Assembly: GCA_016215405.1 (NCBI GenBank)
Contig: JACRJQ010000005.1
Span: 11,560-75,559, forward strand
Length of the DNA: 64,000 nucleotides
DNA from: Candidatus Tayloriibacteriota bacterium
GTDB lineage: Bacteria; Patescibacteriota; Minisyncoccia; Phycocordibacterales; UBA6065
Direction: 5' to 3'
Under the pieces are notes generated by a model, which saw only the letters and a list, made by a program, of their open reading frames with translations, made no database searches and was not told the DNA's origin. Shown here piece after piece: positions 20 to 61,376 of the stretch; within the stretch, counting starts at the first letter, position 1, and the number at the start of each line of letters is the position of its first letter. The position numbers were made by a program, and so were the translations under genes.

Positions 20-1699
20 ATGGTAAAGAGGATATTCTCCTTCGTCGGCAAAGAGATCAGCGGTCTTCACGAGGCCGCGTATCTTTTGGCGCTCTCCTCG
101 GTCGCGTCGCTCTTGTTCGCCCTCGTAAGAGACAGGCTCCTCGCGCACATGCTCGGCGCAGGCGCAGACCTCGACGTCTATTTCGCCGCGTTCCGAGTGC
201 CGGATTTCATATTCGTCGCCGTCGCCTCTCTCGTCTCTACGTCTATCCTCGTGCCGTTCCTCATAGAGGCGAGGCAGAAGGGAGAGGACGAGCTGAAGTC
301 GTCGATCGAGAGCCTTTTCCGCGCTTTTACGTTCCTCATCGTGGTCGTATCTATAGCTGCCGCTGTCTTTATGGAGCCGATACAGAGGGCGTTGTTCCCG
401 AACATATTCGCGGCGGGCAAGGGAGCTGACCTCGTCCTCGCGTCCCGCATACTCCTCCTTTCGCCTATCCTGCTCGGTTTCGGCAGCTTCTTCGCGTCTA
501 TAACCCAGATGCAGAACCGTTTCCTCGTCTATGCCCTGGGAGCCCCTCTCTACAATATCGGCATCATCCTCGGGATCCTCTTCTTTCTGCCGTTCTACGG
601 CGTCACAGGCCTCGTCTGGGGGGTCGTCCTCGGCGCCGCGCTCCTGCTTTGCATACAGCTGCCTCTCGTTATCCGTGACGGACATTTCCCGACGTTCTCG
701 TTCTCGTTCGAGTGGGCGAGAGTGAAGCAAGTCGCAAGGCTTTCGATCCCGCGCACCATAACCTTATCGTCGCAGCAGCTCTCGACCCTCGCCTTGGTCT
801 CCTTCGCGTCGTTTCTCGGCGCGGGTTCCATATCCATATTCAACCTCTCGTTCAATCTCCAATCGGTACCGCTCTCCATCATAGGCGCGAGCTATTCTTC
901 TGCAGCGTTCCCGATGCTCGCTCGCTTTATGGCGGAAGGGAATAGGGAGGCGTTCCTCGGCAAGATGATATCGGCCGCGAAGCACGTGATCTTCTGGGCC
1001 GTGCCGCTCTCGGCGCTCTTCATCGTATTGCGGGCCCAGATAGTCCGAACGGTCCTCGGGTCCGGCGCGTTCTCGTGGTCCGACACGCGCCTCACTTCCG
1101 CCGCCCTAGCTCTCTTCGTAGTCTCCGCGGCGGGACAGTCTCTTATCCTCCTTTTCGTCCGTTCGTTCTATGCGGAAGGGAAGACCGCGAAACCCCTCCT
1201 TATCAACGCGATATCAATGGCCGTCACCGTAGGTCTCGGCTTCCTCCTCATCAAGCTCTACCATCTCGTGCCGCTCTTTAGGGATTTCACCGAGGCGCTC
1301 ATGAAAGCCGAGGGTTCGAAGGATTCGTCCGTGCTCATGCTCCCTCTGGCGTTCTCTATCGGGACCTTCCTCAATCTCTTCCTCCACTGGGTCTCGTTCG
1401 GCAGGGAGTTCTCCGGGTTCACGAGACCCGTGCTTAAGACCGCATTCCACTCCGTCGGGGCGTCGCTTATCGGGTCTCTCATCGCATATAGGTCGCTTCG
1501 CCTTTTTGACGACGTATTCGACCTCTCTACAGCTTTCGGCATCTTCATGCAGGGCCTCTGCGCAGGCGTGGTCGGCATCGTCGCGATCGCAGCCGTCCTC
1601 GCCCTCCTGCGCTCGCAGGAGCTTCGAGATATCAGCGCCGCTATCCATGAAAAGGTCTGGAAGGTCGATCGCTCGTCTCTCGATAAGCTGCCCTCATAG
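20..1699 (+). CDS. murJ: Lipid II flippase MurJ (MviN family)
   Basis: 559-aa polytopic membrane protein; N-terminus (GKEISGLHEAAYLLALSSVASLLFALVRDRLLAHMLGAG, DLDVYFAAFRVPDFIF) matches the MurJ/MviN family pattern; ~14 predicted TM segments. Confidence 0.85.
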   Translation: MVKRIFSFVGKEISGLHEAAYLLALSSVASLLFALVRDRLLAHMLGAGADLDVYFAAFRVPDFIFVAVASLVSTSILVPFLIEARQKGEDELKSSIESLFRAFTFLIVVVSIAAAVFMEPIQRALFPNIFAAGKGADLVLASRILLLSPILLGFGSFFASITQMQNRFLVYALGAPLYNIGIILGILFFLPFYGVTGLVWGVVLGAALLLCIQLPLVIRDGHFPTFSFSFEWARVKQVARLSIPRTITLSSQQLSTLALVSFASFLGAGSISIFNLSFNLQSVPLSIIGASYSSAAFPMLARFMAEGNREAFLGKMISAAKHVIFWAVPLSALFIVLRAQIVRTVLGSGAFSWSDTRLTSAALALFVVSAAGQSLILLFVRSFYAEGKTAKPLLINAISMAVTVGLGFLLIKLYHLVPLFRDFTEALMKAEGSKDSSVLMLPLAFSIGTFLNLFLHWVSFGREFSGFTRPVLKTAFHSVGASLIGSLIAYRSLRLFDDVFDLSTAFGIFMQGLCAGVVGIVAIAAVLALLRSQELRDISAAIHEKVWKVDRSSLDKLPS

Positions 1700-24329: not shown

Positions 24330-24485
24330 AGTTTTTTATGGATGGTCACGGGTCTCTTTGTGGTCAAAAGTCTTTTCTCGCCGTCGCTCGAAAAGCTTTC
24401 GACCCTGGCTCGCGGCCTCGCGAAGCGTTCGGCACCGCTCCGCCTCGCACAAGCTAAAATCCTGCCACAGGCAGGATTTTAGCTT
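24330..24485. repeat. Repeat-rich spacer: ~40-nt imperfect direct repeat (also at 24561-24600) plus 17-bp perfect hairpin CAAGCTAAAATCCTGCC-ACAG-GGCAGGATTTTAGCTTG
   Basis: Seen directly; CCTCGCGGCC(T/G)CGCGAA(G/A)CGTTCGGCA(C/T)CGCTCC occurs twice; hairpin at 24448-24486 abuts a tRNA-Val 3'-end fragment. Confidence 0.6.
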
Positions 24486-24663
24486 GTGCGCGGTATAGGA
24501 ATCTTTCCCTCGACTCGGATTCGCTCGTCAGCGAATCCGGTCTGGTCACCGCCTCGCGGCCGCGCGAAACGTTCGGCATCGCTCCGGCGTTCAAGTCCTA
24601 TACGCATATCTTCAAGACATGCTACCGCGCACGTAAAAACCGGCAGTCGCCGGTTTCTTTCTG
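24486..24663 (-). repeat. tRNA-trailing element (Val copy) bounded by duplicated tRNA-Val 3' end
   Basis: TGTGCGCGGTATAGGA (plus-strand view) at 24486-24501 and again at 24663-24678 (the real tRNA end); contains terminator AAACCGGCGACTGCCGGTTTTT and an inverted T-arm fragment GTTCAAGTCCTATAC. Confidence 0.7.
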
Positions 24664-24736
24664 TGCGCGGTATAGGACTTGAACCTATGACCCTCTCAAC
24701 GTCAATGAGATGCTCTACCAACTGAGCTAACCGCGC
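24664..24736 (-). tRNA. tRNA-Val (GAC)
   Basis: GCGCGGTTAGCTCAGTTGGTAGAGC..anticodon loop TTGACGT..T-arm ATAGGTTCAAGTCCTAT..ACCGCGC-A. Confidence 0.9.
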
Positions 24737-25506: not shown

Positions 25507-25578
25507 GGCCCTATCGTCTAATGGTTAGGACAGGAGCTTTTCAAGCTCTAAATCGGGGTTCGATTCCCCGTAGGGTCA
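25507..25578 (+). tRNA. tRNA-Glu (UUC)
   Basis: GGCCCTATCGTCTAATGGTTAGGAC..anticodon loop TTTTCAA..CGGGGTTCGATTCCCCG..TAGGGTC-A. Confidence 0.9.
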
Positions 25579-25750
25579 CAACGCGGCCGCCGAGAGGCGG
25601 CTTTTGCGTTGTGACCCTAAGTAGCGCCGGGGCGCGCTACGTCGGGGAATCGAAGCCTGTTTGAGCAAACTTTCGAGCTTTCTCAAGCGATGAAAGTTTC
25701 CAAACAGGGTACTGGTCATGTAAGGACCGATATTCCCCGTAGGGTCACAC
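25579..25750 (+). repeat. tRNA-trailing element (Glu copy) ending in 17-nt direct repeat of tRNA-Glu 3' end
   Basis: TTCCCCGTAGGGTCACA at 25564-25580 and 25733-25749; terminator GGCCGCC-GAGA-GGCGGC-TTTT, hairpin TAGCGCCGGGGCGCGCTA, core GAATCGAAGCCTGTTTGAGCAAACTTTCGAGC...GGGTACTGG homologous to Phe/Ser copies. Confidence 0.75.
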
Positions 25751-36584: not shown

Positions 36585-36846
36585 CGACGGTCTCGGCGCA
36601 CGAGAAGCCCTCCTCGTAATTCGCGGAGGGTTTTTCGCGCTTGTAAAGAGACAAGCAGAGAAAGGCGCGCGTAGTATAGGGGTCGACCAAGCGGCAACTC
36701 ATTACAAGATCAATCCAACAGAAAAATGGCACGAAAAAACTCTAACGGAAGGAACCGGTCTCGATCGAGATCGGCGTCCCGTCCGAAAAGCGATTCCCGA
36801 CGACGATCGGAGGCCCAGAGGGAGCGCGAGGATATGAATTAAAAGA

Positions 36847-36876
36847 AAGACCGCCGGCCCTTGGGCCGGCGGTCTT
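36847..36876. terminator. Terminator AAGACCGCCGGCCC-TTG-GGCCGGCGGTCTT
   Basis: Perfect 14-bp hairpin downstream of minus-strand gene 36888-37328. Confidence 0.75.
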
Positions 36877-36887
36877 ATTCGCGCCTC

Positions 36888-37328
36888 CTAGAGGGCGCTT
36901 CGTCTCTTTTTTCCGAGGTCTGCGAATACGGTCGCGGCGAGGGCGATGATGACGATGTTCTTTATGATGTATTGGCCCTCGAGCGTCGGCACGAACGCCT
37001 GAGACCAGGTCATGTCCGGTAGGAGGAAGAGGGGCATTATGGTCGTCACCATGTGGACGGCGAGGAGGCCCATTCCGACCTTCTCGGCGCGAGGTATGAC
37101 GAACAGGATGCCGATGAGGACCTCGAGGAGGCCGAGGCACACTATGAACGTATCGGCGGACATGGGCAAGATGATGCCTAAGGTCCTGCCGAAGAGGTCT
37201 GAGACGAGGGGATTCGCCGGCGAGAGGCCGAAGAGCTTGAGCGACCCGAACCAGACGAATACCACGAATAGGGCGAAATGGGCGAATAAGAACGCGTTAT
37301 ACTCCGTCTTTTTCATTCCTTGGTTCAT
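36888..37328 (-). CDS. Inner-membrane protein, DUF417(YkgB)/DoxX-like
   Basis: 146 aa, 4 TM, VVFVWFGSLKLFGLSP motif. Confidence 0.4.
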   Translation of the reverse strand: MNQGMKKTEYNAFLFAHFALFVVFVWFGSLKLFGLSPANPLVSDLFGRTLGIILPMSADTFIVCLGLLEVLIGILFVIPRAEKVGMGLLAVHMVTTIMPLFLLPDMTWSQAFVPTLEGQYIIKNIVIIALAATVFADLGKKRRSAL

Positions 37329-37342
37329 GCCGTTATTGTAGC

Positions 37343-38263
37343 TTATTTAGCGTGGAGGTGGACGTAGATGTCCTCGAGGGCCTTTACGGCGTCTCCGGCG
37401 GCGATGTTGTTCTGATGGTAGAGGCCGTCGGTGCAATCGCCTGCGGCCCATATGCCCGACGTCGAGGTCGCTTGGGTGCGCGGGTCGACCATGATGCGCC
37501 CGAACGGGTCGAGGGCGACCGCCTCTTTCGCGAACGATGTCGTGGGGACGGAACCGATCTCTACGAAGATGCCCAAGACCGCGAGCTCTCGCGTCTCGCC
37601 CGAATCCTTGTCCTTATAGACGAGGGCGTTGGCGAATTTGCCGCCTTTGACCTCGACGGGGATCGCCCCGCGGAGAGCGTGCATCTTCGGGTTCGAGAGG
37701 ACTTTCTTTACGGTGACGGGATCGGCGCGGAATTCGTCGCTCCGGTTAAGGAGGGTCACCGACTTGCAATAGGCGAGGAGCTGGGCGGCCGATTCGAACG
37801 CCGCGTTTCCGCCGCCTATGACCGCGACGTCCTGGCCCGCGAACACCGGCCCGTCGCAGGAGGCACAATAGGTTATGCCCTTATGCTCGAACGCGTCCGC
37901 TCCGGGGACATCGAGCTTGCGGCGGGTCGATCCCGTCGCTATAAGGACGGTCTTCGCCTTGTACGAGCCTTTGTCGGTCGATATGTCGAATCCGTCTTCG
38001 GCTTTCGAGACGCCCTTCGCGAGCTCGCCCGCCTTTATATCGACTACGTCCGCGGCGTACGCCCTTAGGTGCGATTCGAGGGACTTCGCGAAGTCCGCGC
38101 CCGATATCTTTACCGTGCCTATCCAGTTCTCGATGCCTTCGGACACCGTCGATTGGCTCTCCCAGTCGCGGGTTATAAAGACCGTCTTAAGGCGCTTTCG
38201 GGACGCGTATACCCCTGCTGCTACTCCTGCAGGGCCTCCGCCGATGATCGCAAGGTCGTACAT
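37343..38263 (-). CDS. trxB: Thioredoxin-disulfide reductase
   Basis: FAD site IIGGGPAG, redox-active CASCDG, NADPH site VIGGGNAA, AAGDC. Confidence 0.9.
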   Translation of the reverse strand: MYDLAIIGGGPAGVAAGVYASRKRLKTVFITRDWESQSTVSEGIENWIGTVKISGADFAKSLESHLRAYAADVVDIKAGELAKGVSKAEDGFDISTDKGSYKAKTVLIATGSTRRKLDVPGADAFEHKGITYCASCDGPVFAGQDVAVIGGGNAAFESAAQLLAYCKSVTLLNRSDEFRADPVTVKKVLSNPKMHALRGAIPVEVKGGKFANALVYKDKDSGETRELAVLGIFVEIGSVPTTSFAKEAVALDPFGRIMVDPRTQATSTSGIWAAGDCTDGLYHQNNIAAGDAVKALEDIYVHLHAK

Positions 38264-38320: not shown

Positions 38321-38455
38321 ATATTTTCTTTTAGCCGATCCACGCTTTCTTTCCTGCGGAACTCGCGCCGTCGCGCTTCGTTAATCCCAACGAAGTAAGC
38401 GGACGGGGTATCAGAGAGAAGAAGGAAAAAGCCGCGCCTTAAGGCGCGGCTTTCT
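38321..38455. repeat. Intergenic repeat family copy R1 (between ftsZ and trxB)
   Basis: TTTCTTTTAGCCGATCCACGC...CTCGCGCCGTCGCGCTTCGTTAAT...GCGGACGGGGTATCAGAGAGAAGAAGGAAAAAGCC + hairpin GCCGCGCC-TTAA-GGCGCGGC; homologous to 47296-47450 and 44772-44930. Confidence 0.7.
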
Positions 38456-38466
38456 CGGTATGGATA

Positions 38467-39645
38467 TTACTTTTTCCTCCTAAGGAAGGCCGGGACTGCG
38501 CCCCAGTCGTCATCATCTTGGGAGATGGTAGGGATCGCTGACTTCTTGTCCTCGAGAGGGGACGCCTTTGGCTCGGGCCTGTCTTCCTTTATTACAGGGG
38601 TCGCCACCGCATTGTGTATCTTGCCTTTTGTCTCCTCCTTTTCCGGAGCGGAGAAGAGGGACTTCGCCTTTGCGGCGTGGGTCGCAGGGCCGTCGCCGAA
38701 TCCGGTCGCTATCACGGTCACTTTGACCTCGCCCTTCTTGAGCTTCTCGTCGCGGACGGTACCGAAGATGACTTTCGCGTTAGGGTCTATCGACTCGGTG
38801 ATTATCTTCGCCGCGTCTTGGATCTCGAACATGGTGATATCGTCGCCTCCGGCGATAGAGAAGAGGACGCCCTTCGCTCCCGCGATAGAGATGTCGAGGA
38901 GGGGCGAGGAGATAGCCATCTTCGCCGCGTCCTCTGCGCGCTTCTCGCCTGAGCCTACGCCGATGCCCATGAGGGCAGGACCCGCATTCTCCATGATGGC
39001 GCGGATGTCGGCGAAGTCGATATTGATGATGCCGGGGGTGGTGATGAGGTCAGAGATGCCTTCGACCGCCTGCTTTAAGACCTCGTCGCACATGGCGAAG
39101 GCGGCCTTCGCGGTCGTGTTCCTGTCGATGTTCGAAAGGAGCCTGTCGTTAGGAATTATGATGATGGCGTCGACTTCCTTCCTGAGGTTCTCGAGAGCTT
39201 GCTCCGCGATCTTCATGCGCTGCGCGCCTTCGAAGAAGAAGGGCTTTGTGACGACGGCTACCGTGAGAGCGCCGAGCTCCTTCGCTGTCTTCGCCGCGAC
39301 CGGAGCCGCGCCGGATGCCGTGCCGCCGCCCATACCGCCCGCGACGAACACCATGTCGGAGCCTTTGACAGCCTCCTGAAGCTCTTCCTTGGTCTCTTCG
39401 ATCGCCCTTCTCCCGATGTCGGGGTTCATGCCCGCGCCGAGGCCTTTGGTGAGATTCTTGCCTATATGGATCTTCTTCTTGGCGAGGGAGTGGTGGAGGT
39501 CCTGAGCGTCCGTGTTGACCGCGATGAATTCGACTCCTTTGACCTTGGAGTTGATCATGTGGTTTATGGCGTTCTTGCCGGAGCCGCCGATACCGAGGAC
39601 CTTTATCCTCGCGAACGTCTCTACTTCCGGTACGATGTTTGGCAT
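38467..39645 (-). CDS. ftsZ: Cell division GTPase FtsZ
   Basis: Tubulin signature GGGTGSGAAPV, T7 loop; start set at MPNIVPEV (39645) rather than upstream ATG 39708. Confidence 0.95.
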   Translation of the reverse strand: MPNIVPEVETFARIKVLGIGGSGKNAINHMINSKVKGVEFIAVNTDAQDLHHSLAKKKIHIGKNLTKGLGAGMNPDIGRRAIEETKEELQEAVKGSDMVFVAGGMGGGTASGAAPVAAKTAKELGALTVAVVTKPFFFEGAQRMKIAEQALENLRKEVDAIIIIPNDRLLSNIDRNTTAKAAFAMCDEVLKQAVEGISDLITTPGIINIDFADIRAIMENAGPALMGIGVGSGEKRAEDAAKMAISSPLLDISIAGAKGVLFSIAGGDDITMFEIQDAAKIITESIDPNAKVIFGTVRDEKLKKGEVKVTVIATGFGDGPATHAAKAKSLFSAPEKEETKGKIHNAVATPVIKEDRPEPKASPLEDKKSAIPTISQDDDDWGAVPAFLRRKK

Positions 39646-39795
39646 GAAATTAAAGGCTAAAAATGGTCGCGCGAGGGTAACTCGTTCGATTTGGTAAGGT
39701 GCGTACATGATACCAAAGAGCCCTCAAAATACAATAAGGCCCATATATCAGGCTCCAAACGGGGGGAAAGTCAAAAAGCCCCGCAGATGCGGGGT

Positions 39796-44056: not shown

Positions 44057-44710
44057 CTACTCCTTCGCTTCGACCGTGGTCGAAGCGACCTTTCCTGGCC
44101 AGAGGTCGAACCCTGAGAGGGGCAGGAGCCTCATGATGGGCCGGCCTACCACGTCGGATTTCGGCAAGGCGCCCCATACGCGCGAATCCGAGGAGACGAC
44201 GCGATTGTCGCCCATGACGAAATACTCGTCGTCCTCGAGGGTCTTCGTGAGGTCGCCGAAGGTGCGCGAGTGGATGTAAGGCTCGTTAAGGACGATGCCT
44301 TTCGGGTTATCGGCGTTCACGATCGTGACCTTGTCGTTCTTTACCACGACGGTCTCTCCGGGAAGGCCGATGAGCCTCTTTATGAAGTATTTCGAAGGGT
44401 CCTGCGGGTATTTGAATATGAGGACGTCACCGCGCTCTGGAGCCTTGAATCTGTAGGAGAGCTCGTCGACGATGAGGTATTCGCCGTCTGCGAAGGTCGT
44501 GTCCATGGAGGAGCCGTTCACGACGAACGGCTGCGCGACCCACATGCGGATCGGAAGGACGACGACGAGGGCGAGGATCGCGTAAGAGAGGAGCTCGCGG
44601 AAGAATCCGCTTTTCTTCGGCGTTTCGACGGTCGAGGTGGTTGGTGGGAGCTCCATGTAAAGGGTTCGATTGGTGAGGATAGTATAGGGGCGAGGTGAGG
44701 GTTGACACAA
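44057..44710 (-). CDS. lepB: Signal peptidase I
   Basis: Box B SMDTTF (catalytic Ser), box D KRLIGLPGE (Lys), box E GDNRVVSSDSRVWG. Confidence 0.85.
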   Translation of the reverse strand: MCQPSPRPYTILTNRTLYMELPPTTSTVETPKKSGFFRELLSYAILALVVVLPIRMWVAQPFVVNGSSMDTTFADGEYLIVDELSYRFKAPERGDVLIFKYPQDPSKYFIKRLIGLPGETVVVKNDKVTIVNADNPKGIVLNEPYIHSRTFGDLTKTLEDDEYFVMGDNRVVSSDSRVWGALPKSDVVGRPIMRLLPLSGFDLWPGKVASTTVEAKE

Positions 44711-44771: not shown

Positions 44772-44930
44772 CAGTTTCTTTTAGCCGGTCCGCATTTTCT
44801 TCGCTCGAAGACGCAAGCGCCCTCGAAGACTCGGGTTCCATTCTCGCAAAGAAGAATGCGGACTCGGCGGCGGGGTTAAGAGAAGAGGAAGAAAGCCCTG
44901 TTTCAGCGAAGCTGAAACAGGGCTTTCTTG
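44772..44930. repeat. Intergenic repeat family copy R3 (between lepB and pth) with terminal hairpin
   Basis: TTTCTTTTAGCCGGTCCGC...GCGGACTCGGCGGCGGGGTTAAGAGAAGAGGAAGAAAGCC + hairpin GAAAGCCCTGTTTCAGC-GAAG-GCTGAAACAGGGCTTTC; second hairpin CTGAACACCTCAACCGGTTGAGGTGTTCAG at 44938-44968. Confidence 0.65.
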
Positions 44931-45025
44931 GGCCATTCTGAACACCTCAACCGGTTGAGGTGTTCAGGCTCGGCTAGGGCCTAGAGTCTATCTTGCTATC
45001 CTGCTTTCTTGCTATACTCATCGTC

Positions 45026-45664
45026 ATGATAATCATAGGACTCGGAAATCCTGGGGCGGAGTATGAGGGCACGCGGCATAACGCGGGCCGCGAGGCTGTC
45101 ATGAAGTTCGCGAAGAAGGCAGGCTTCGACGGATTCGAGTTCGACAAGAAGGCGCAGGCGTTGGTATCCGTTGGAAAGGTGGGGAAGACGAAGGCGACTC
45201 TTGTCCTTCCCGAGACCTTCATGAACAAGTCGGGGGCTTCGGCGGGCAAATTTGCGAAGGGCGCCAAGAAGATCAAAGACCCTTCGACCGGCAAATCGAT
45301 CAAAGCGTTCCCGGAGGTCATCGTCGTCCATGACGACCTCGACATCCCTTTGGGCAAGGCGAAGATGTCGTGGAACAAGAGCGCCGGCGGGCACAAGGGC
45401 GTGCAATCGGTCCTCAAGGCTTTAGGCACCGAGGCGGTCTTCCGCATTCGGATCGGCATAACTCCGGCCAAGGCATCGGGAGAGCTCAAGAAGCCTGACC
45501 ACGATACGATAACCGAGAACTTCATAGTCGCGGGATTCAAAGAGAAGGAGGCGCAAGAGCTCTCGAAGGTGACCAAGAAGGTCGTCGATTGCCTCGAGAT
45601 GGCCATCTCCGATTCTCCAGAGCGGGCGATGAGTGAGTACAACGCAGTATTCAGCAACCTATAG
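45026..45664 (+). CDS. pth: Peptidyl-tRNA hydrolase
   Basis: IIIGLGNPGAEYEGTRHNAG; TATACT-N7-ATG start; upstream in-frame ATG 44993 disfavoured. Confidence 0.9.
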   Translation: MIIIGLGNPGAEYEGTRHNAGREAVMKFAKKAGFDGFEFDKKAQALVSVGKVGKTKATLVLPETFMNKSGASAGKFAKGAKKIKDPSTGKSIKAFPEVIVVHDDLDIPLGKAKMSWNKSAGGHKGVQSVLKALGTEAVFRIRIGITPAKASGELKKPDHDTITENFIVAGFKEKEAQELSKVTKKVVDCLEMAISDSPERAMSEYNAVFSNL

Positions 45665-45985
45665 CTGATCGCGAGCGGGGTTTTACCGAGGCGAAACCTC
45701 GGTACAACGATAAAAAAGCGGCGCCCTGGCGGGGTGGGCGCCGCTTCGTCGGAGCTTGGAAAGATCTGGGGAGAAGGGCGGGCGGCGATCGGCTCCCAGC
45801 TTGGGACCTGTCGCGTTCGGCCGCCCGCCCTCTCCGCTATGCATGTCCGGTTGTCTGCCGCTATCACATGCGAAGGGGAGCGACCCCTTCCGGCTTTAAT
45901 ACGCGCCCTGAGGCGAAAATCGCTCAAGAGAAAGCCCCGAGCCTTACGGCTCGGGGCTTTCTCTTATCTGAGGCTTCGCTTTCGC

Positions 45986-47113
45986 TTACGCCTTCTTCTC
46001 TCCCGCGAACGAGAGGGTCATCTTCTGGTTCGTCGCGTCGAAGAGGGTTATCTTGAACGGATACACCTTTCCGAGCTCGAGGTGGCTTCGGAGCTTCTCG
46101 TCTGAGCCGAACTCAGAGACATGGACGAGGCCGGCGACGCCTTCTTCGATAGAGGCGAGCGCGCCGTGGCGGTTGAACTTGATGATCACGCCCTTGACCT
46201 GCATGTCCTTCTTGTACTTCTTCGCCGCGTCTGCCCATGGGTTAGGCTTGAGGGCCTTGATCGAGAGGGAGACCTTGCCTTCCTTGACCTCGATGACCTT
46301 CACGCGGACCTTGTCGCCCACCTTAAAGCGGGTCTTTGGATCTTCTACGAGCGCCCAGTCGATCTCGGATATATGGACGAGCCCTTCGAGCCCTTCGTCG
46401 ATCTTGACGAAGACGCCGAAGTCGACCATTCCGGTGACCTTGCCCTCGATCTCGTCTCCGACCTTGAACTTAGCGACCGCGGTCGCCTTGTCCTTGCCCT
46501 CTACGGGGTTCTTCTCGGAGAAGATAAGCTTGCCCTCCTTAGGGAACGCGCCGATGATCGATACGGAGAGCTTGGTGCCGACGAGCTTCTTGAGCTCTTC
46601 GAGGATGCGGTCCTTATCGCCGTCCTGCACGCGTGGGTAGTGCTCGGGCTTGAGCTGGGAAGCAGGGAGGAAGCCCTGGATGCCCTGCCACTCGATGATG
46701 AGGCCGCCCTTGTTCGCTTCTTTGATAGGGAGCTCGAGGACGCGCTTCTCAGCGATGGCCTGCTCTGCCTCCGTCCATATGAGGGCCTGGCGAGCCTCCT
46801 TGAGGGAGAGCTCGATGTAGCCTTCTTTGTTTGAAGGGTCGACGATCTTCGCCGAGACCTTGTCGCCGATGTTTATCTTCTTTATGACGTCGCGCGCGAG
46901 GATATACTCGCGGCCGAATATGATGCCGGTTCCGAACGGAGGAAGGTCGACGAATACGCCCTTCTTGTCGATCGCGATGACGGAGCCCTCGATGAGGTCT
47001 CCTGCCGACGGCGGGGTAGGGATAGAAGCCGAGAGCTTGCCCATGAGGGTGTTAGCCTTCGCTTCCATCTCAGGCGTCGTCTTTACCGCCTTCTTTGCTG
47101 TTTCTGGTGACAT
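45986..47113 (-). CDS. rpsA: 30S ribosomal protein S1 (four S1 domains)
   Basis: Repeated S1 OB-fold motifs (GxV..V...GxFV.L..G..GL.H.SE). Confidence 0.9.
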   Translation of the reverse strand: MSPETAKKAVKTTPEMEAKANTLMGKLSASIPTPPSAGDLIEGSVIAIDKKGVFVDLPPFGTGIIFGREYILARDVIKKINIGDKVSAKIVDPSNKEGYIELSLKEARQALIWTEAEQAIAEKRVLELPIKEANKGGLIIEWQGIQGFLPASQLKPEHYPRVQDGDKDRILEELKKLVGTKLSVSIIGAFPKEGKLIFSEKNPVEGKDKATAVAKFKVGDEIEGKVTGMVDFGVFVKIDEGLEGLVHISEIDWALVEDPKTRFKVGDKVRVKVIEVKEGKVSLSIKALKPNPWADAAKKYKKDMQVKGVIIKFNRHGALASIEEGVAGLVHVSEFGSDEKLRSHLELGKVYPFKITLFDATNQKMTLSFAGEKKA

Positions 47114-47295
47114 GAAATGAAAAAAGCCCGAAATTTCTTTTTGCGCAGTTTCTCGTGCCGTTGGCCTGCAAAAAGGGTTAATTTCAAGGGTGATTTTCCT
47201 TGTAAATACCGGTCAAACGGTGGTTTGGGCCGGTCAGGAGATACTATCACACATTAACTAAGTTTCAACTTATCTGAGGTATCCCAGGGATAGTC

Positions 47296-47450
47296 TTCTA
47301 TTTTAGTCCTTTTCCTTGGCGAGCACAGGTAATCCGCCCGAAGCGGATCCCTTTCAGCTCGCGCCGTCGCGCTCCGCTAATCTCGCCAAGGGAAATGGAC
47401 GGGGTTTGAAGACGGGAAATAACGAGGGCCGGTTCGCGAAAGCGAACCGG
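47296..47450. repeat. Intergenic repeat family copy R2 (upstream of rpsA)
   Basis: ...CTCGCGCCGTCGCGCTCCGCTAAT...TGGACGGGGTTTGAAGACGGGAAATAACGAGGGCC + hairpin GGGCCGGTTCGC-GAAA-GCGAACCGGCCC. Confidence 0.65.
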
Positions 47451-47467
47451 CCCCGCAGCAGTCAAGG

Positions 47468-47818
47468 TCAGGTTTTGAGCCTGGCCGAGGCCTCCCTCGA
47501 CAGTATCTCGAACGTCGGACCGAGCGGGTTTCCCGCCGATTCGAAGCTGATGCTCCCCGTCGACCAAAGAAAGATCTTGAATTCGATCATAGGGAGGCTC
47601 AGGACGATGCCCGAGCCTGCGCCGGTGATGACGACTTCGCCCGGCGATACGACTTTGCCGAACCAGGCGAGGTCGATGACGGCCGTATGAGGCACGAAGC
47701 TCAGTCTTTCGATGCAGCCGGTGAACAGGTCTCCGTCGTTCGCTATGAATTCGAGATATCTGCCGCGGAAATCCTCGCCCAGAGAGCAAAACTCGCTCCA
47801 CGACATCTCTTTTTGCAT
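47468..47818 (-). CDS. Hypothetical protein (116 aa)
   Basis: Coding-like codon usage; no recognised motif. Confidence 0.4.
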   Translation of the reverse strand: MQKEMSWSEFCSLGEDFRGRYLEFIANDGDLFTGCIERLSFVPHTAVIDLAWFGKVVSPGEVVITGAGSGIVLSLPMIEFKIFLWSTGSISFESAGNPLGPTFEILSREASARLKT

Positions 47819-47962
47819 TGAGGGCCTTTGTTGGATCCTCGCAAAAGTCTAGTTTCAGCGGAGGAGGCTGTCAATGTCGCGGACGGCTCGTCGGAAGAAG
47901 CCTCGCGAAGTCCGCCCCTTGTCAATCTAGATGCCGACGCGAAAATACTCTATACTCTCTTT

Positions 47963-51708: not shown

Positions 51709-52164
51709 ATGAAAAAGATATTCTTCGCAGCAATCATTCTCGCTTCTCTCGCCTTTACTCAGCAGGCGTTCGCTCAGAGCCCTAACCCGGCGGCCCAGCC
51801 CCTCGCTCCGGGAGCCCCTATGCCTGGCGCTCAGCAGAGCAACGTCCTTACGGTAGACACGAGCGCGTGCAAGGCGTTCACTACTCAGGGCGCGTCCGCG
51901 ATCTTCAGCTGCTTCCTCGGGTTCCTCGAATACATAAGCATCATCCTTCTCGCCCTCGCCGTCTTCTACACCATGTATGCGGCGTTCAAGCTCGTCCAGA
52001 GCGAAGAGGGCAGGGACGAGGCGAAGAAGACCATCCTCTACGGAATACTCGCCATCTTCATCATGACCTCGGTCTGGGGCCTCGTGAACATACTCGCGAA
52101 CACCTTCAGCATCACAGGGAGCGCCAAGGCGCCAGTCCAGCTCGTTGGATCGAGCAAGCCGTAG
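51709..52164 (+). CDS. TrbC/VirB2-like small pilin-type membrane protein (paralog 1)
   Basis: Signal peptide, two hydrophobic helices, conserved WGLVNIL; TGTACAAT-N6-ATG promoter-start arrangement. Confidence 0.6.
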   Translation: MKKIFFAAIILASLAFTQQAFAQSPNPAAQPLAPGAPMPGAQQSNVLTVDTSACKAFTTQGASAIFSCFLGFLEYISIILLALAVFYTMYAAFKLVQSEEGRDEAKKTILYGILAIFIMTSVWGLVNILANTFSITGSAKAPVQLVGSSKP

Positions 52165-56337: not shown

Positions 56338-56747
56338 TGAAAAAGATACTGATAGCGGGAATGATCGCGGTCGTAGCCCTGATGGGCCCACTGTCGTTCG
56401 CGCACGCCCAGACCCAGAGCGGCGGTACGTGCGAGAGCCTAAAGACGAACGGCCTCGGCGGCGTCGTGAACTGCGTCATCCTCCTCTTAGACTACGCGGC
56501 GATCGCCATCCTCGCCCTTTCGGTCCTCTATACGATGTGGGGCGCCTTCCTCATGGCCTCGAGCGAAGAGAAGAGGCAGCAGGGAAAGGACATCGTCATA
56601 TTCGGCATAATCGGGATATTCGTGATGACTTCGATATGGGGCCTCGTCAACATATTGCAGAGCACCTTCGGGCTCGAGGGTGGCCCTATAACGCCCACGA
56701 AGATCGACAGGACTCCGGTGAATATCCAGAACCCGTTGAGGTCCTAG
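56337..56747 (+). CDS. TrbC/VirB2-like pilin-type protein (paralog 4)
   Basis: Signal peptide; VLYTMWGAFLMASSEEKRQQGKDIVIFGIIGIFVMTSIWGLVNILQSTF. Confidence 0.6.
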   Translation: MKKILIAGMIAVVALMGPLSFAHAQTQSGGTCESLKTNGLGGVVNCVILLLDYAAIAILALSVLYTMWGAFLMASSEEKRQQGKDIVIFGIIGIFVMTSIWGLVNILQSTFGLEGGPITPTKIDRTPVNIQNPLRS

Positions 56748-56847: not shown

Positions 56848-57213
56848 ATGAAAAAATTCGGCATTGTAGCGTCGGTTCTCGCGTTCCCATACCTCGCTTT
56901 CGCTCAGGTATCCGGCAACGTATCGAACCTCGACGGTATATTCCGCTTTATAAAGAGGCTTCTCGACACGGTACTTCCGCTCATCATAGCGCTTACCGTC
57001 GTCTGGTTCGTCTGGGGACTCTTCCGCATGTTCACCGCCTCCGACGAGGAGAAGAAGGAAAAGGCGAAGTCGACCATCATCTACGGTGTCATCGCTCTCT
57101 TCGTGATGATCTCGATCTGGGGACTCGTCAACATCCTCTATAACACGTTCCAGCTCGACTCGACGAACCGCTCGAACCAGGTCCAGCAGCAGCTTCCTAA
57201 CCTTCCGAGCTAA
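56848..57213 (+). CDS. TrbC/VirB2-like pilin-type protein (paralog 5)
   Basis: VVWFVWGLFRMFTASDEEKKEKAKSTIIYGVIALFVMISIWGLVNILYNTF. Confidence 0.6.
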   Translation: MKKFGIVASVLAFPYLAFAQVSGNVSNLDGIFRFIKRLLDTVLPLIIALTVVWFVWGLFRMFTASDEEKKEKAKSTIIYGVIALFVMISIWGLVNILYNTFQLDSTNRSNQVQQQLPNLPS

Positions 57214-57231: not shown

Positions 57232-57573
57232 ATGAACAGCTTTAAAGCGCTTCTCGTACCGCTTCTTTCGCTCGCGACCCTGGTCGCCGGCCTAAGCGGA
57301 CCGCTCGCTCTCGAGGCAGCCCCCGTGAACGCTTTGGAGCTTCGGCCTGTGCAAAAGCTTTTCGATCTCGTCATCAACCCTGTCGTAAGGCTCCTCTTCG
57401 CCGCAGCGGTGTTCTACTTCGTCTACGGCATCTGGAGCTACGTAAGGAAATCCGACGATCCGTCGGAGAGGGCGCAGGGGGGTAAGCACATCCTCTACTC
57501 GACCATAGGCCTCTTCATCATGATCTCCGTCTGGGGCATCATCGCGGTGATACAGAGGACGGTCGGACAATAG
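57232..57573 (+). CDS. TrbC/VirB2-like pilin-type protein (paralog 6)
   Basis: VFYFVYGIWSYVRKSDDPSERAQGGKHILYSTIGLFIMISVWGIIAVIQ; followed by terminator GACCGCCG-CATC-CGGCGGTC+TTTCGTTTT (57585-57617). Confidence 0.55.
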   Translation: MNSFKALLVPLLSLATLVAGLSGPLALEAAPVNALELRPVQKLFDLVINPVVRLLFAAAVFYFVYGIWSYVRKSDDPSERAQGGKHILYSTIGLFIMISVWGIIAVIQRTVGQ

Positions 57574-60721: not shown

Positions 60722-60926
60722 GGAGCTCCCGCCCAAAACGAAAACAGCTCGTCGCTGTTTTGTTTGTGGGCGAGGGGGGGACTTGAATCTTACAGATTCG
60801 GTACAGGTTTTCTGTTTCCTCGGTTGGAAACCCTCGTAAACATAGAAAACCTTTTCGCGTCCCCCATGCAGAGCCACAGGCTCTGCTCTCGCCCAAAACG
60901 AAAACAGCTCATCGCTGTTTTGTTTG
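60722..60926 (-). repeat. tRNA-trailing element (Leu-UAG copy) incl. ~55-nt direct repeat of tRNA-Leu 3' end plus its terminator
   Basis: CGCCCAAAACGAAAACAGCTC(G/A)TCGCTGTTTTGTTTGTGGGCGAGGGGGG at 60722-60777 and 60889-60940 (167-bp period); hairpins AACAGC-GATGA-GCTGTT and GCAGAGCC-TGT-GGCTCTGC. Confidence 0.75.
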
Positions 60927-61007
60927 TGGGCGAGGGGGGACTTGAACCCCCATGCCTTGCGGCGCTAGCTCCTAAGGCTAGTGTGTCTGCCATTTCACCA
61001 CCCGCCC
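60927..61007 (-). tRNA. tRNA-Leu (UAG), type II
   Basis: GGGCGGGTGGTGAAATGGCAGACAC..anticodon arm CTAGC-CTTAGGA-GCTAG..variable arm..GGGGGTTCAAGTCCCCC..CTCGCCC-A. Confidence 0.85.
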
Positions 61008-61094: not shown

Positions 61095-61303
61095 ATCTCG
61101 ATCCCTACACATACGTCCAGCGGACATGCGCGTAGGGATATCTCTCTCGATTTAAATTTTCTCGTCAGAAAATTTAGTCTGGGTACCGCCTCGCTCCCGC
61201 CGGAGACCGGCAGGCCCCGTTTCGGCGTTCGATCCCTACACGCAAGCCTAACAGGCTTGCTAGGGCGGGCACGAAAAAACGGCCGGAGCCGTTTTTTCTC
61301 GTG
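61095..61303 (-). repeat. tRNA-trailing element (Lys copy) with direct and inverted partial copies of tRNA-Lys T-arm/3' end
   Basis: Minus-sense: terminator AAAAAACGGCTCCGGCCGTTTTTT, hairpin GCAAGCC-TGTT-AGGCTTGC, T-arm-like GTGTAGGGATCGAACGCC, GGTACCCAGAC, hairpin AAATTTTCT-GACG-AGAAAATTT, partial copies ATCCCTAC (61127-61140, 61098-61110). Confidence 0.6.
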
Positions 61304-61376
61304 TCCGCCCTGTAGGGATCGAACCTACGACCTTATCCTTAAGAGGGATCTGCTCTACCAACTGAGCTAAGGGCGG
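61304..61376 (-). tRNA. tRNA-Lys (CUU)
   Basis: CCGCCCTTAGCTCAGTTGGTAGAGC..anticodon loop CTCTTAA..GTAGGTTCGATCCCTAC..AGGGCGG-A (C1-G72 pair). Confidence 0.8.

Follow-up and report, generated by a model that had tools for sequence, protein, structure and literature searches.

A previously uncatalogued folded repeat is scattered through small Parcubacteria (CPR) genomes and has three copies near trxB, lepB and rpsA

The window, by which we mean the whole 64 kb stretch of DNA analysed here, has a GC content of about 57% and belongs to a CPR bacterium of the Parcubacteria/Paceibacteria group, the FtsZ protein encoded in it being at most 87% identical to proteins of MAGs from that group. Three segments, 38321-38455 (R1), 44772-44930 (R2) and 47296-47450 (R3), had been singled out in a preliminary description as an intergenic repeat family, and all three were found at these positions, each lying 5' (in gene sense) of the minus-strand gene to which it had been assigned, namely trxB (38263..37343), lepB (44710 or 44656..44057) and rpsA (47113..45986). 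R1 occupies the spacer between ftsZ (39708..38467, minus strand) and trxB, the order on that strand being ftsA, ftsZ, trxB. To the right of R2 the conserved gene is pth on the plus strand (45026-45664), the orthologue of which in the related locus L010 is Pept_tRNA_hydro, and R2 therefore sits in the spacer between the divergent genes lepB and pth. A 317-aa minus-strand ORF (44974-45927), considered as the neighbour of R2, was rejected as a spurious shadow of pth without a Pfam match.

The segments had been called free of ORFs, which holds for real genes, but two mechanical ORFs (47298..47801 on the minus strand and 47316..47690 on the plus strand) overlap R3. Neither has support as a gene, and the second had no homologue among 160 related loci. 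The same applies to a 116-aa ORF next to R3 (47818..47468), for which neither a Pfam match nor a homologue among the 160 related loci was found. That the segments do not code for protein, as had been proposed, is the best fit to the evidence. The divergent spacer between rpsA and the lactamase-B gene, to which 47455-47827 belongs, contains about 600 nt more than in close relatives, and this surplus is made up of R3, a hairpin and the 116-aa ORF. As for the starts of the genes, a TATACT box stands 5 nt before the start of pth and another one 9 nt before the ATG of trxB; judged from the position of these boxes, mRNAs in this organism may be leaderless or nearly so. Elsewhere in the window four paralogous gene ends (52012-52083, 56574-56645, 57055-57126 and 57469-57540) share 69-76% DNA identity. 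They possibly encode a common hydrophobic C-terminal segment, which, if so, would suggest a small family of secreted or pilin-like proteins.

The likeness among the three segments is uneven. An end motif had been described for all three. The 17-mer TTTCTTTTAGCCGRTCC is exact in R1 and R2 (38325-38341 and 44775-44791), its only two sites in the 64 kb (chance expectation 0.3 at no more than three mismatches), whereas R3 carries only a weak version of the 5' motif, TTCTATTTTAGTCC. The internal GCGCCGTCGCGC…TAAT block had been attributed to R1 and R2 and is in fact common to R1 and R3, R2 and R3 having been swapped: CTCGCGCCGTCGCGCT and GGACGGGGT each occur at exactly two sites in the window, in R1 and in R3, as parts of a 48-nt match of 79% identity. 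When the terminal GC hairpins were removed and local alignments were compared with 1000 shuffles, R1-R2 (z=9.1) and R1-R3 (z=14.1) were significant, with 0 of 1000 shuffles reaching either score, but R2-R3 was at background (z=0.2). Thus, the family of three is held together by R1. No further copy of R1-R3 was detected in the window by blastn or nhmmer.

A shared 3' module had also been reported. All three segments do end beside a strong GC hairpin, but the accompanying purine tract (AGAG-AAGA-GGAA) is only partly specific, being the pyrimidine tail of terminator-like hairpins that are read on the minus strand; no other site of the region looks as much like a terminator on that strand as these three GC hairpins do. 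A purine tract followed by a GC hairpin is generic terminator anatomy, and R1-R3 could on this account be ordinary GC-rich terminator regions that resemble one another by chance. The exact 16-17-mers shared between the segments, the z values of 9-14 obtained with the hairpins excluded and the match of R3 to an independently built model (E 1e-20) make the probability of such a coincidence next to negligible. The likeness clearly extends beyond generic GC hairpins and further copies are present elsewhere, contrary to the outcome under which the preliminary description would have abandoned the family.

A search for the P3 hairpin found it with compensatory stem changes in many loci of relatives, and individual folds of these relatives gave one common architecture of about 90-125 nt. 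A long closing stem (P1), the sequence of which differs from copy to copy, encloses a conserved asymmetric three-way-junction core. The junction usually reads GGAG-N-CACG and leads into the hairpin P2, which has the loop YUGCUR and often a bulged U; then follow CUC, the hairpin P3 (GCNC-CGUC-GNGC), UCCGA…CUCC and the return strand of P1. MAFFT and RNAalifold applied to loosely trimmed copies recovered P3 only, and the structure was therefore set by hand. With this hand-set structure the family displays strong covariation. In eight hand-picked sequences 85% of the cells pair, compared with 66% after shuffling and 38-49% with slid partners; in 51 sequences the figure is 83%, compared with 56% and 42-50%, respectively, and double changes are seen in 32 of the 33 pairs. 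U·G closing pairs recur in P2. A pseudoknot between ACG of the junction and CGU of the loop was rejected, as two compensatory cases (L028 and L016) were set against about eight breaks.

The first covariance model gave 19 full matches in 80 ftsZ-centred loci and the window, with R3 scoring 69 bits. The second, built from the 51 sequences, gave 33 matches in 25 of the 81 ftsZ-centred loci (window included), at a host GC content of 0.27-0.65. At least 120 stretches were retrieved by a scan of metagenomes with the P3 pattern, and 40 full model matches were obtained in 80 of them, the host GC range of the family being 0.27-0.70 overall. No family match was found in the scan of viral sequences. The whole window, searched against Rfam 15 at the gathering threshold, yielded only tRNAs, and permissive Rfam scans of R1, R3 and one intact relative returned only sub-threshold chance matches; the literature searched contained no account of an element of this kind from CPR bacteria. 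R1-R3 are three copies of a structured, non-coding interspersed repeat that is lineage-wide in Parcubacteria/Paceibacteria.

The three copies differ in their state of preservation. R3 (47293..47413, plus strand) is an intact member of the family, both by model score (69.2 bits, E 1e-20; 58.6 bits with the second model) and by fold, and it was the only full match in the window when the covariance model was run with filters off. Its outer helix joins GTCTTC (47293-47298) to GAAGAC (47408-47413) and its P1 joins 47306-47323 to 47382-47400; the junction CACA (47324-47327), the P2 hairpin (47328-47351) and P3 (GCGC-CGTC-GCGC, 47361-47372), followed by TCCGCTAAT, lie between the arms. R1 and R2 are placed in the family because of their sequence similarity (R1-R2 and R1-R3) and not by a full model score. 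In R1 (38325..38421, plus strand), a diverged member, the model matches P3 alone, locally, with 12.9 bits. R1 begins with the outer motif TTTCTTTTAGCC (38325-38336), has imperfect P1 arms (38337-38351 and 38393-38404), a short P2 (TTCC-TGC-GGAA, 38351-38361, 4 bp with a UGC loop, this P2 and the arms being judged by eye), an exact P3 (GCGCCGTCGCGC, 38365-38376) and an additional hairpin (38376-38395), and ends with GGGGT and the purine tract (38405-38421). R2 (44775..44885, plus strand), a decayed or variant copy without a model match, is recognised by its similarity to R1: the outer helix pairs TTTCTTTTAGCC (44775-44786) with GGGGTTAAGAGAAG (44872-44885), P1 pairs GGTCCGCATTTTCTTC (44787-44802) with GAAGAATGCGGACTC (44851-44865), and the interior (44803-44850) has lost its match to the family core. 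R3 is therefore intact, R1 is half decayed and R2 has lost its core. In the outer helices of all three, according to the fold and to the reading of the sequence, G·U pairs occur on the plus strand only.

Separate hairpins of terminator form, with a GC-rich stem and a U tract, adjoin the three copies. The one abutting R1 (38425..38456, minus strand) has 14 pairs and the tail CTTCTTCTCT, and lies directly past the ftsZ stop (38467). A 19-bp hairpin (44889..44929) abuts R2 in the spacer of divergent genes, where no gene converges on it that it could terminate. The base of this hairpin (AAAGCC…GGCTTTCT) and that of the R1 hairpin are homologous, and right after it, in the same spacer, comes a second perfect hairpin, GAACACCTCAACCGGTTGAGGTGTTC (44937-44972). 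The 13-bp GC hairpin abutting R3 (47425..47454, minus strand) is located 13 nt past the stop of the unsupported 116-aa ORF. The idea of element plus terminator as a universal unit was nevertheless rejected, since most copies elsewhere have no terminator-like hairpin nearby. After the element's own P1 there are on average only 3.7-3.8 T in 10 nt, so that the signal for a U tract in the direction of the upstream gene is weak and inconsistent; A- and T-tracts flank a few copies (L153) on both sides. At 36831-36924 of the window a hairpin GCGCC…GGCGC and TTCG come after a terminator hairpin (GACCGCCGGCC…GGCCGGCGGTC), with a weak model match (17.2 bits, E 0.005); this is probably a mere pair of hairpins and no member of the family.

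In related genomes the element is multi-copy and its presence varies at orthologous sites. Five copies, two of these in tandem pairs, were found in L121, and three each in L153, L010 and L009; copies from one genome are 81-90% identical, whereas the identity of their flanks, 51-60%, does not exceed background. Between ftsZ and trxB the element points the same way as ftsZ in five loci (L008, L009, L010, L011 and L027); it is inverted in the window, and six loci (L002, L003, L005, L007, L012 and L013) lack it. Between lepB and pth an element is present in the window, L001, L062, L058, L028 and L037, where R2 has the same site and orientation as the intact members of the five relatives, and the spacer is empty in L014, L003, L009, L010 and L008. 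Between rpsA and the lactamase gene the spacer measures about 100 nt in L003, L005 and L014 versus 714 nt in the window. At the site 3' of pth, L008, L009 and L010 share the flanks and the outer base of P1, and the cores are opposite in orientation and different in subtype. All three copies in L010, including the one at the 3' site of rpsA, have a 6-bp P3 with a CTTC loop, whereas the L009 orthologue of the latter has the common 4-bp CGTC form. Because all copies of L010 share a form of P3 that the L009 orthologue lacks, we infer that copies are homogenised within a genome. The genes flanking the element are heterogeneous (PilB-type ATPase, RuvB, Fic, RhuM, rpsA, pth and ftsZ).

These observations bear directly on the suggestion, made in the preliminary description, that the repeats form a conserved leader. 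A cis-regulatory leader, riboswitch or attenuator of trxB, lepB and rpsA would agree with the location of all three window copies 5' of these genes. The element is, however, often absent from the orthologous upstream regions in close relatives and the family lies beside unrelated genes elsewhere. Furthermore, promoter-like -10 boxes are located between the element and both lepB and rpsA, with TATACT in that place for trxB, the conserved core strand is antisense to all three genes, and no riboswitch or leader of Rfam was matched. The element has no fixed position or orientation that would tie it to the 5' UTRs of one particular gene family, and we rejected the leader as very improbable.

The suggestion of a REP-like module or a MITE, made in the same place, is the best fit to a structured element that has several copies per genome, occupies orthologous sites in some relatives but not in others and takes either orientation. 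Two attributes of MITEs were observed: dispersed copies with insertion polymorphism, and terminal inverted repeats in the form of the P1 arms (15-25 bp). The base of P1 is common to the copies of one lineage (GCGAAAGGAA…TTCCTTTCGC in L008-L011; GTCC…TTTCTT in the window and L001), and the middle of P1 varies between copies. A third attribute, target-site duplication, was not detected, direct repeats of at least 5 nt being found in 25 of 65 copies versus 21±3.7 in permuted data. The motif CTCG flanks 11 of the 65 dispersed copies (3.2 expected) in the arrangement …(A)CTCG-P1…P1'-CTCGCTT…, the bracketed copies being those of L016, L027, L037, L058, L062, L107, L116, L126, L136, L146 and L149; the copy in L028 has TCATTCG on both sides in place of CTCG. 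This bracket could be a fixed attachment core or a part of the element ends. The loci covered showed no transposase, RAYT or integrase beside the copies, and tblastn with Y1 query sequences revealed no Y1 transposase/RAYT in 1.76 Mb of loci (10-20 kb per genome); one match with E=0.39 lay antisense to a LexA-like gene. On the L121 contig, which has five copies, an IS1595-type transposase gene (75-998, minus strand) lies 345 nt from the repeat copy at 1343-1426.

Taken together, the R1-R3 family is probably a non-autonomous mobile structured repeat of the MITE/REP/ERIC kind. Such an element would be copied into new intergenic sites, would be inverted or replaced between relatives and homogenised within a genome, and would then decay. 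The conserved core would most likely be the part that is recognised, as a folded single strand, by the factor moving or maintaining the repeat, and the long hairpin would be tolerated at the boundaries of genes, where it might serve as a terminator or an insulator. Besides the missing general target duplication and the missing enzyme gene beside the copies in the loci covered, several observations argue against a mobile repeat. The most conserved part is the internal core and not the termini, the reverse of classical MITEs; the core, the loops and the bulged U are conserved over hosts of 27-70% GC, as for a functional RNA; a hairpin follows all three window copies on the plus strand, where the case of R2 would suit an independent transcript; G·U pairs in the outer helices of R1-R3 are confined to the plus strand; and copies on one contig mostly have the same orientation (14 instances versus 3 with different orientations), although these counts are not independent.

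For this reason, that is, because the termini vary, general target duplication and an enzyme were not found, the core is conserved and each window copy has a hairpin after it on the plus strand, we have retained the explanation that the family functions as RNA, either as independent small RNA genes or as protein-binding or processing elements within transcripts. The repeats would then be paralogous genes rather than selfish DNA, and the small-gene form would consist of a promoter, the three-way junction and a terminator. Strong covariation is in line with this, as is the conservation of loops, junction and bulged U at very different GC contents. The hairpin that comes after every window copy on the plus strand, even after R2 in its divergent spacer, the plus-strand-only G·U pairs of the outer helices and the recurrent U·G closing pairs of P2 point in the same direction, and so does the P3 that changes in concert within a genome, possibly co-evolving with a trans factor.

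Other features are harder to reconcile with a functional RNA. The element takes either orientation relative to its neighbours, even at the same orthologous site, and among long ORFs ending within about 40 nt of it 12-13 gene ends are co-oriented and 12 convergent. G·U pairs are not in excess over A·C (65:84 in model-aligned pairs, and 32:55 in P1, where 106 mismatches are transversions). In 54 of 57 cases the reverse complement has the more stable fold, by 6 kcal/mol, which is probably a composition effect of the shared purine-rich core. The choice of a strand by wobble pairs or folding energy was dropped, as neither of them gave a clear strand. Several copies are separated by only 17-36 nt from a divergent start codon, so that there is no space for a promoter, and no conserved promoter was found upstream of R1-R3. 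Most copies elsewhere lack a terminator-like hairpin beside them. On balance, a role as RNA is possible but unlikely, and we continue to favour the mobile repeat.

Of all the evidence that the wider family is, or formerly was, mobile, the most telling comes from members linked to tRNA genes, since a tRNA 3' end repeated in direct orientation is the classical footprint of site-specific integration. These type B members begin GGTCACG…CGCGACC and lie directly 3' of a tRNA gene, with the conserved strand opposite to the tRNA in nine of ten cases. The inserts, of 70-130 nt, encode nothing. They stand between the tRNA 3' end and an exact direct repeat of it, which has its start in the T-loop and is 16-20 nt long (31 nt in L157), as seen in L051, L099, L108, L157, L022, L042 and L090. 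The closing stem consists of this tRNA-end repeat and its complement, and thereby copies the T-arm and acceptor end of the tRNA that precedes the element; because it is built from the repeat, the stem varies with the neighbouring tRNA (Ser, Val, Leu, Gly or Glu). Near the dispersed (type A) elements no third copy of the stem was found, and R1-R3 are without direct repeats of the tRNA type.

Two diverged relatives of the tRNA-linked kind are present in the window, having initially been listed as an unrelated repeat pair. The first (24488..24615, plus strand), which is type-B-like, lies downstream of tRNA-Val (24736..24663). Its closing stem pairs GCGCGGTATAGGA with TCCTATACGC, its core on the tRNA strand reads GCCGGAGCG…CGCGAGGCGGTGACC with the hairpin loop CTGACGAG, and its end is formed by the tRNA-Val 3' end in a 15-nt direct repeat (TCCTATACCGCGCAC). 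The second (61125..61260, plus strand) lies downstream of tRNA-Lys (61376..61303). The segments 24470-24665 and 61105-61305 align over about 190 nt and were judged by eye to be roughly 65-70% identical, the 81% obtained by columns for the two-row alignment being inflated; their hairpin stems (GGATTCG/CGAATCC versus AAATTTT/AAAATTT) differ by compensatory changes around the conserved loop CTCGTCAG.

Other tRNA 3' ends of the window are also repeated. A 55-nt direct repeat of 96% identity (60725-60779 and 60885-60939, 160 nt apart) comprises the 3' end of tRNA-Leu(tag) and a terminator hairpin, with about 105 nt of unrelated insert between the copies, and resembles the footprint that a small insertion or an integration event would leave at the 3' end of a tRNA gene. 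Downstream of tRNA-Glu (25507-25579), the segment 25580-25661 contains an inverted copy of the tRNA's own 3' end (GTGACCCTA…GGGGAATCGAA), interrupted by the hairpin GCGCC-GGG-GCGC and weakly matched by the model (17.6 bits, E 0.004); this may be a degenerate element.

The anatomy of the tRNA-linked stem raises a more specific mechanism within the mobile interpretation, namely that the element is a folded single-strand recombination site, the core of which is read by a recombinase, the stem imitating the double-stranded target and integration taking place at matching sites. A stem that is a direct copy of the tRNA 3' end plus its complement and co-varies with the adjacent tRNA is consistent with this, as is the orientation to the tRNA, fixed in nine of ten cases, and strand choice in attC and IS608 hairpins depends on features of this type, a bulged base and asymmetric loops. 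Against it stand the type A copies, which have no third stem copy nearby, the lack of attC ends (GTTRRRY) and the lack of an integrase or transposase beside the copies in the loci covered; the proposal is drawn from anatomy, and we consider it quite unlikely. A broader alternative, which we put forward only tentatively and do not hold to be likely, is that the repeat is a miniature integrative module with a core read as folded single-stranded DNA or RNA and a stem serving as target copy or guide, or else a new class of functional RNA. The reader of such a module could be a recombinase or a reverse transcriptase, and the RNA could be protein-binding or catalytic, hitch-hiking through CPR genomes.

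The genomes of CPR bacteria, Parcubacteria among them, are tiny, and few mobile elements or non-coding RNAs have been recognised in them. A structured multi-copy element, found throughout the class at the boundaries of core genes (ftsZ, rpsA, lepB, pth and tRNA genes), shows that even such genomes still harbour and tolerate proliferating DNA. The repeat family can serve as a marker when genomes are compared or the quality of an assembly is judged, and poses a tractable problem in the search for the recogniser of its conserved core; the tRNA-linked subfamily, the stem of which copies a tRNA end, may expose an unusual choice of target. For annotation, it keeps R1-R3 from being labelled as leaders or sRNAs of trxB, lepB and rpsA.

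Among known systems, TIGR arrays, integron attC sites, hammerhead and other ribozymes, the K-turn and tRNA-like folds were set aside on anatomy. The tRNA-linked subfamily resembles tRNA-targeting integrative elements in having the tRNA 3' end, from the T-loop onwards, on both sides as a direct repeat, and folded attachment sites (integron attC, CTX phage attP) in its hairpin with bulged bases. However, the whole insert is only about 70-130 nt long, encodes nothing and has no integrase in view, the dispersed R1-R3 are without such direct repeats, and the RYYYAAC…GTTRRRY consensus ends of integron attC are absent, the neighbours being housekeeping genes.

REP sequences and REPINs with their RAYTs are comparable as extragenic palindromes. 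They lie at the ends of genes in both orientations, form clusters or tandems, lack target duplications and are homogeneous in sequence within a genome, and REPs are recognised as folded single strands. The R1-R3 family differs in having neither a GTAG-type 5' tetranucleotide nor a symmetric doublet of one short palindrome; the anatomy of REP/REPIN does not fit because the core is asymmetric. A RAYT-like gene was not seen in the 1.76 Mb of loci, which, covering only part of each genome, is a weak test.

ERIC and the Correia elements of Neisseria are likewise imperfect palindromes of about 100-150 nt in intergenic, often transcribed spacers, multi-copy and in either orientation, with insertions polymorphic between relatives and a long hairpin that can affect mRNA ends; ERIC is, moreover, conserved across genera. 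In the present family, by contrast, the termini vary and an internal asymmetric three-way-junction core is conserved, there is no TA or general target duplication, and the host belongs to the CPR. No similarity in sequence to ERIC or Correia was apparent. In the Bacillus cereus group, a structured subgroup of the bcr repeats is interspersed near gene ends and has a predicted, conserved RNA-like structure with compensatory changes. The resemblance to these repeats is one of kind only, the host phylum being unrelated and the sequence and fold different. Thus, the R1-R3 family resembles ERIC, Correia, REP and bcr repeats in kind, and differs from them in its conserved asymmetric three-way-junction core within a variable stem, in a sister subfamily that copies tRNA ends and in its CPR host.
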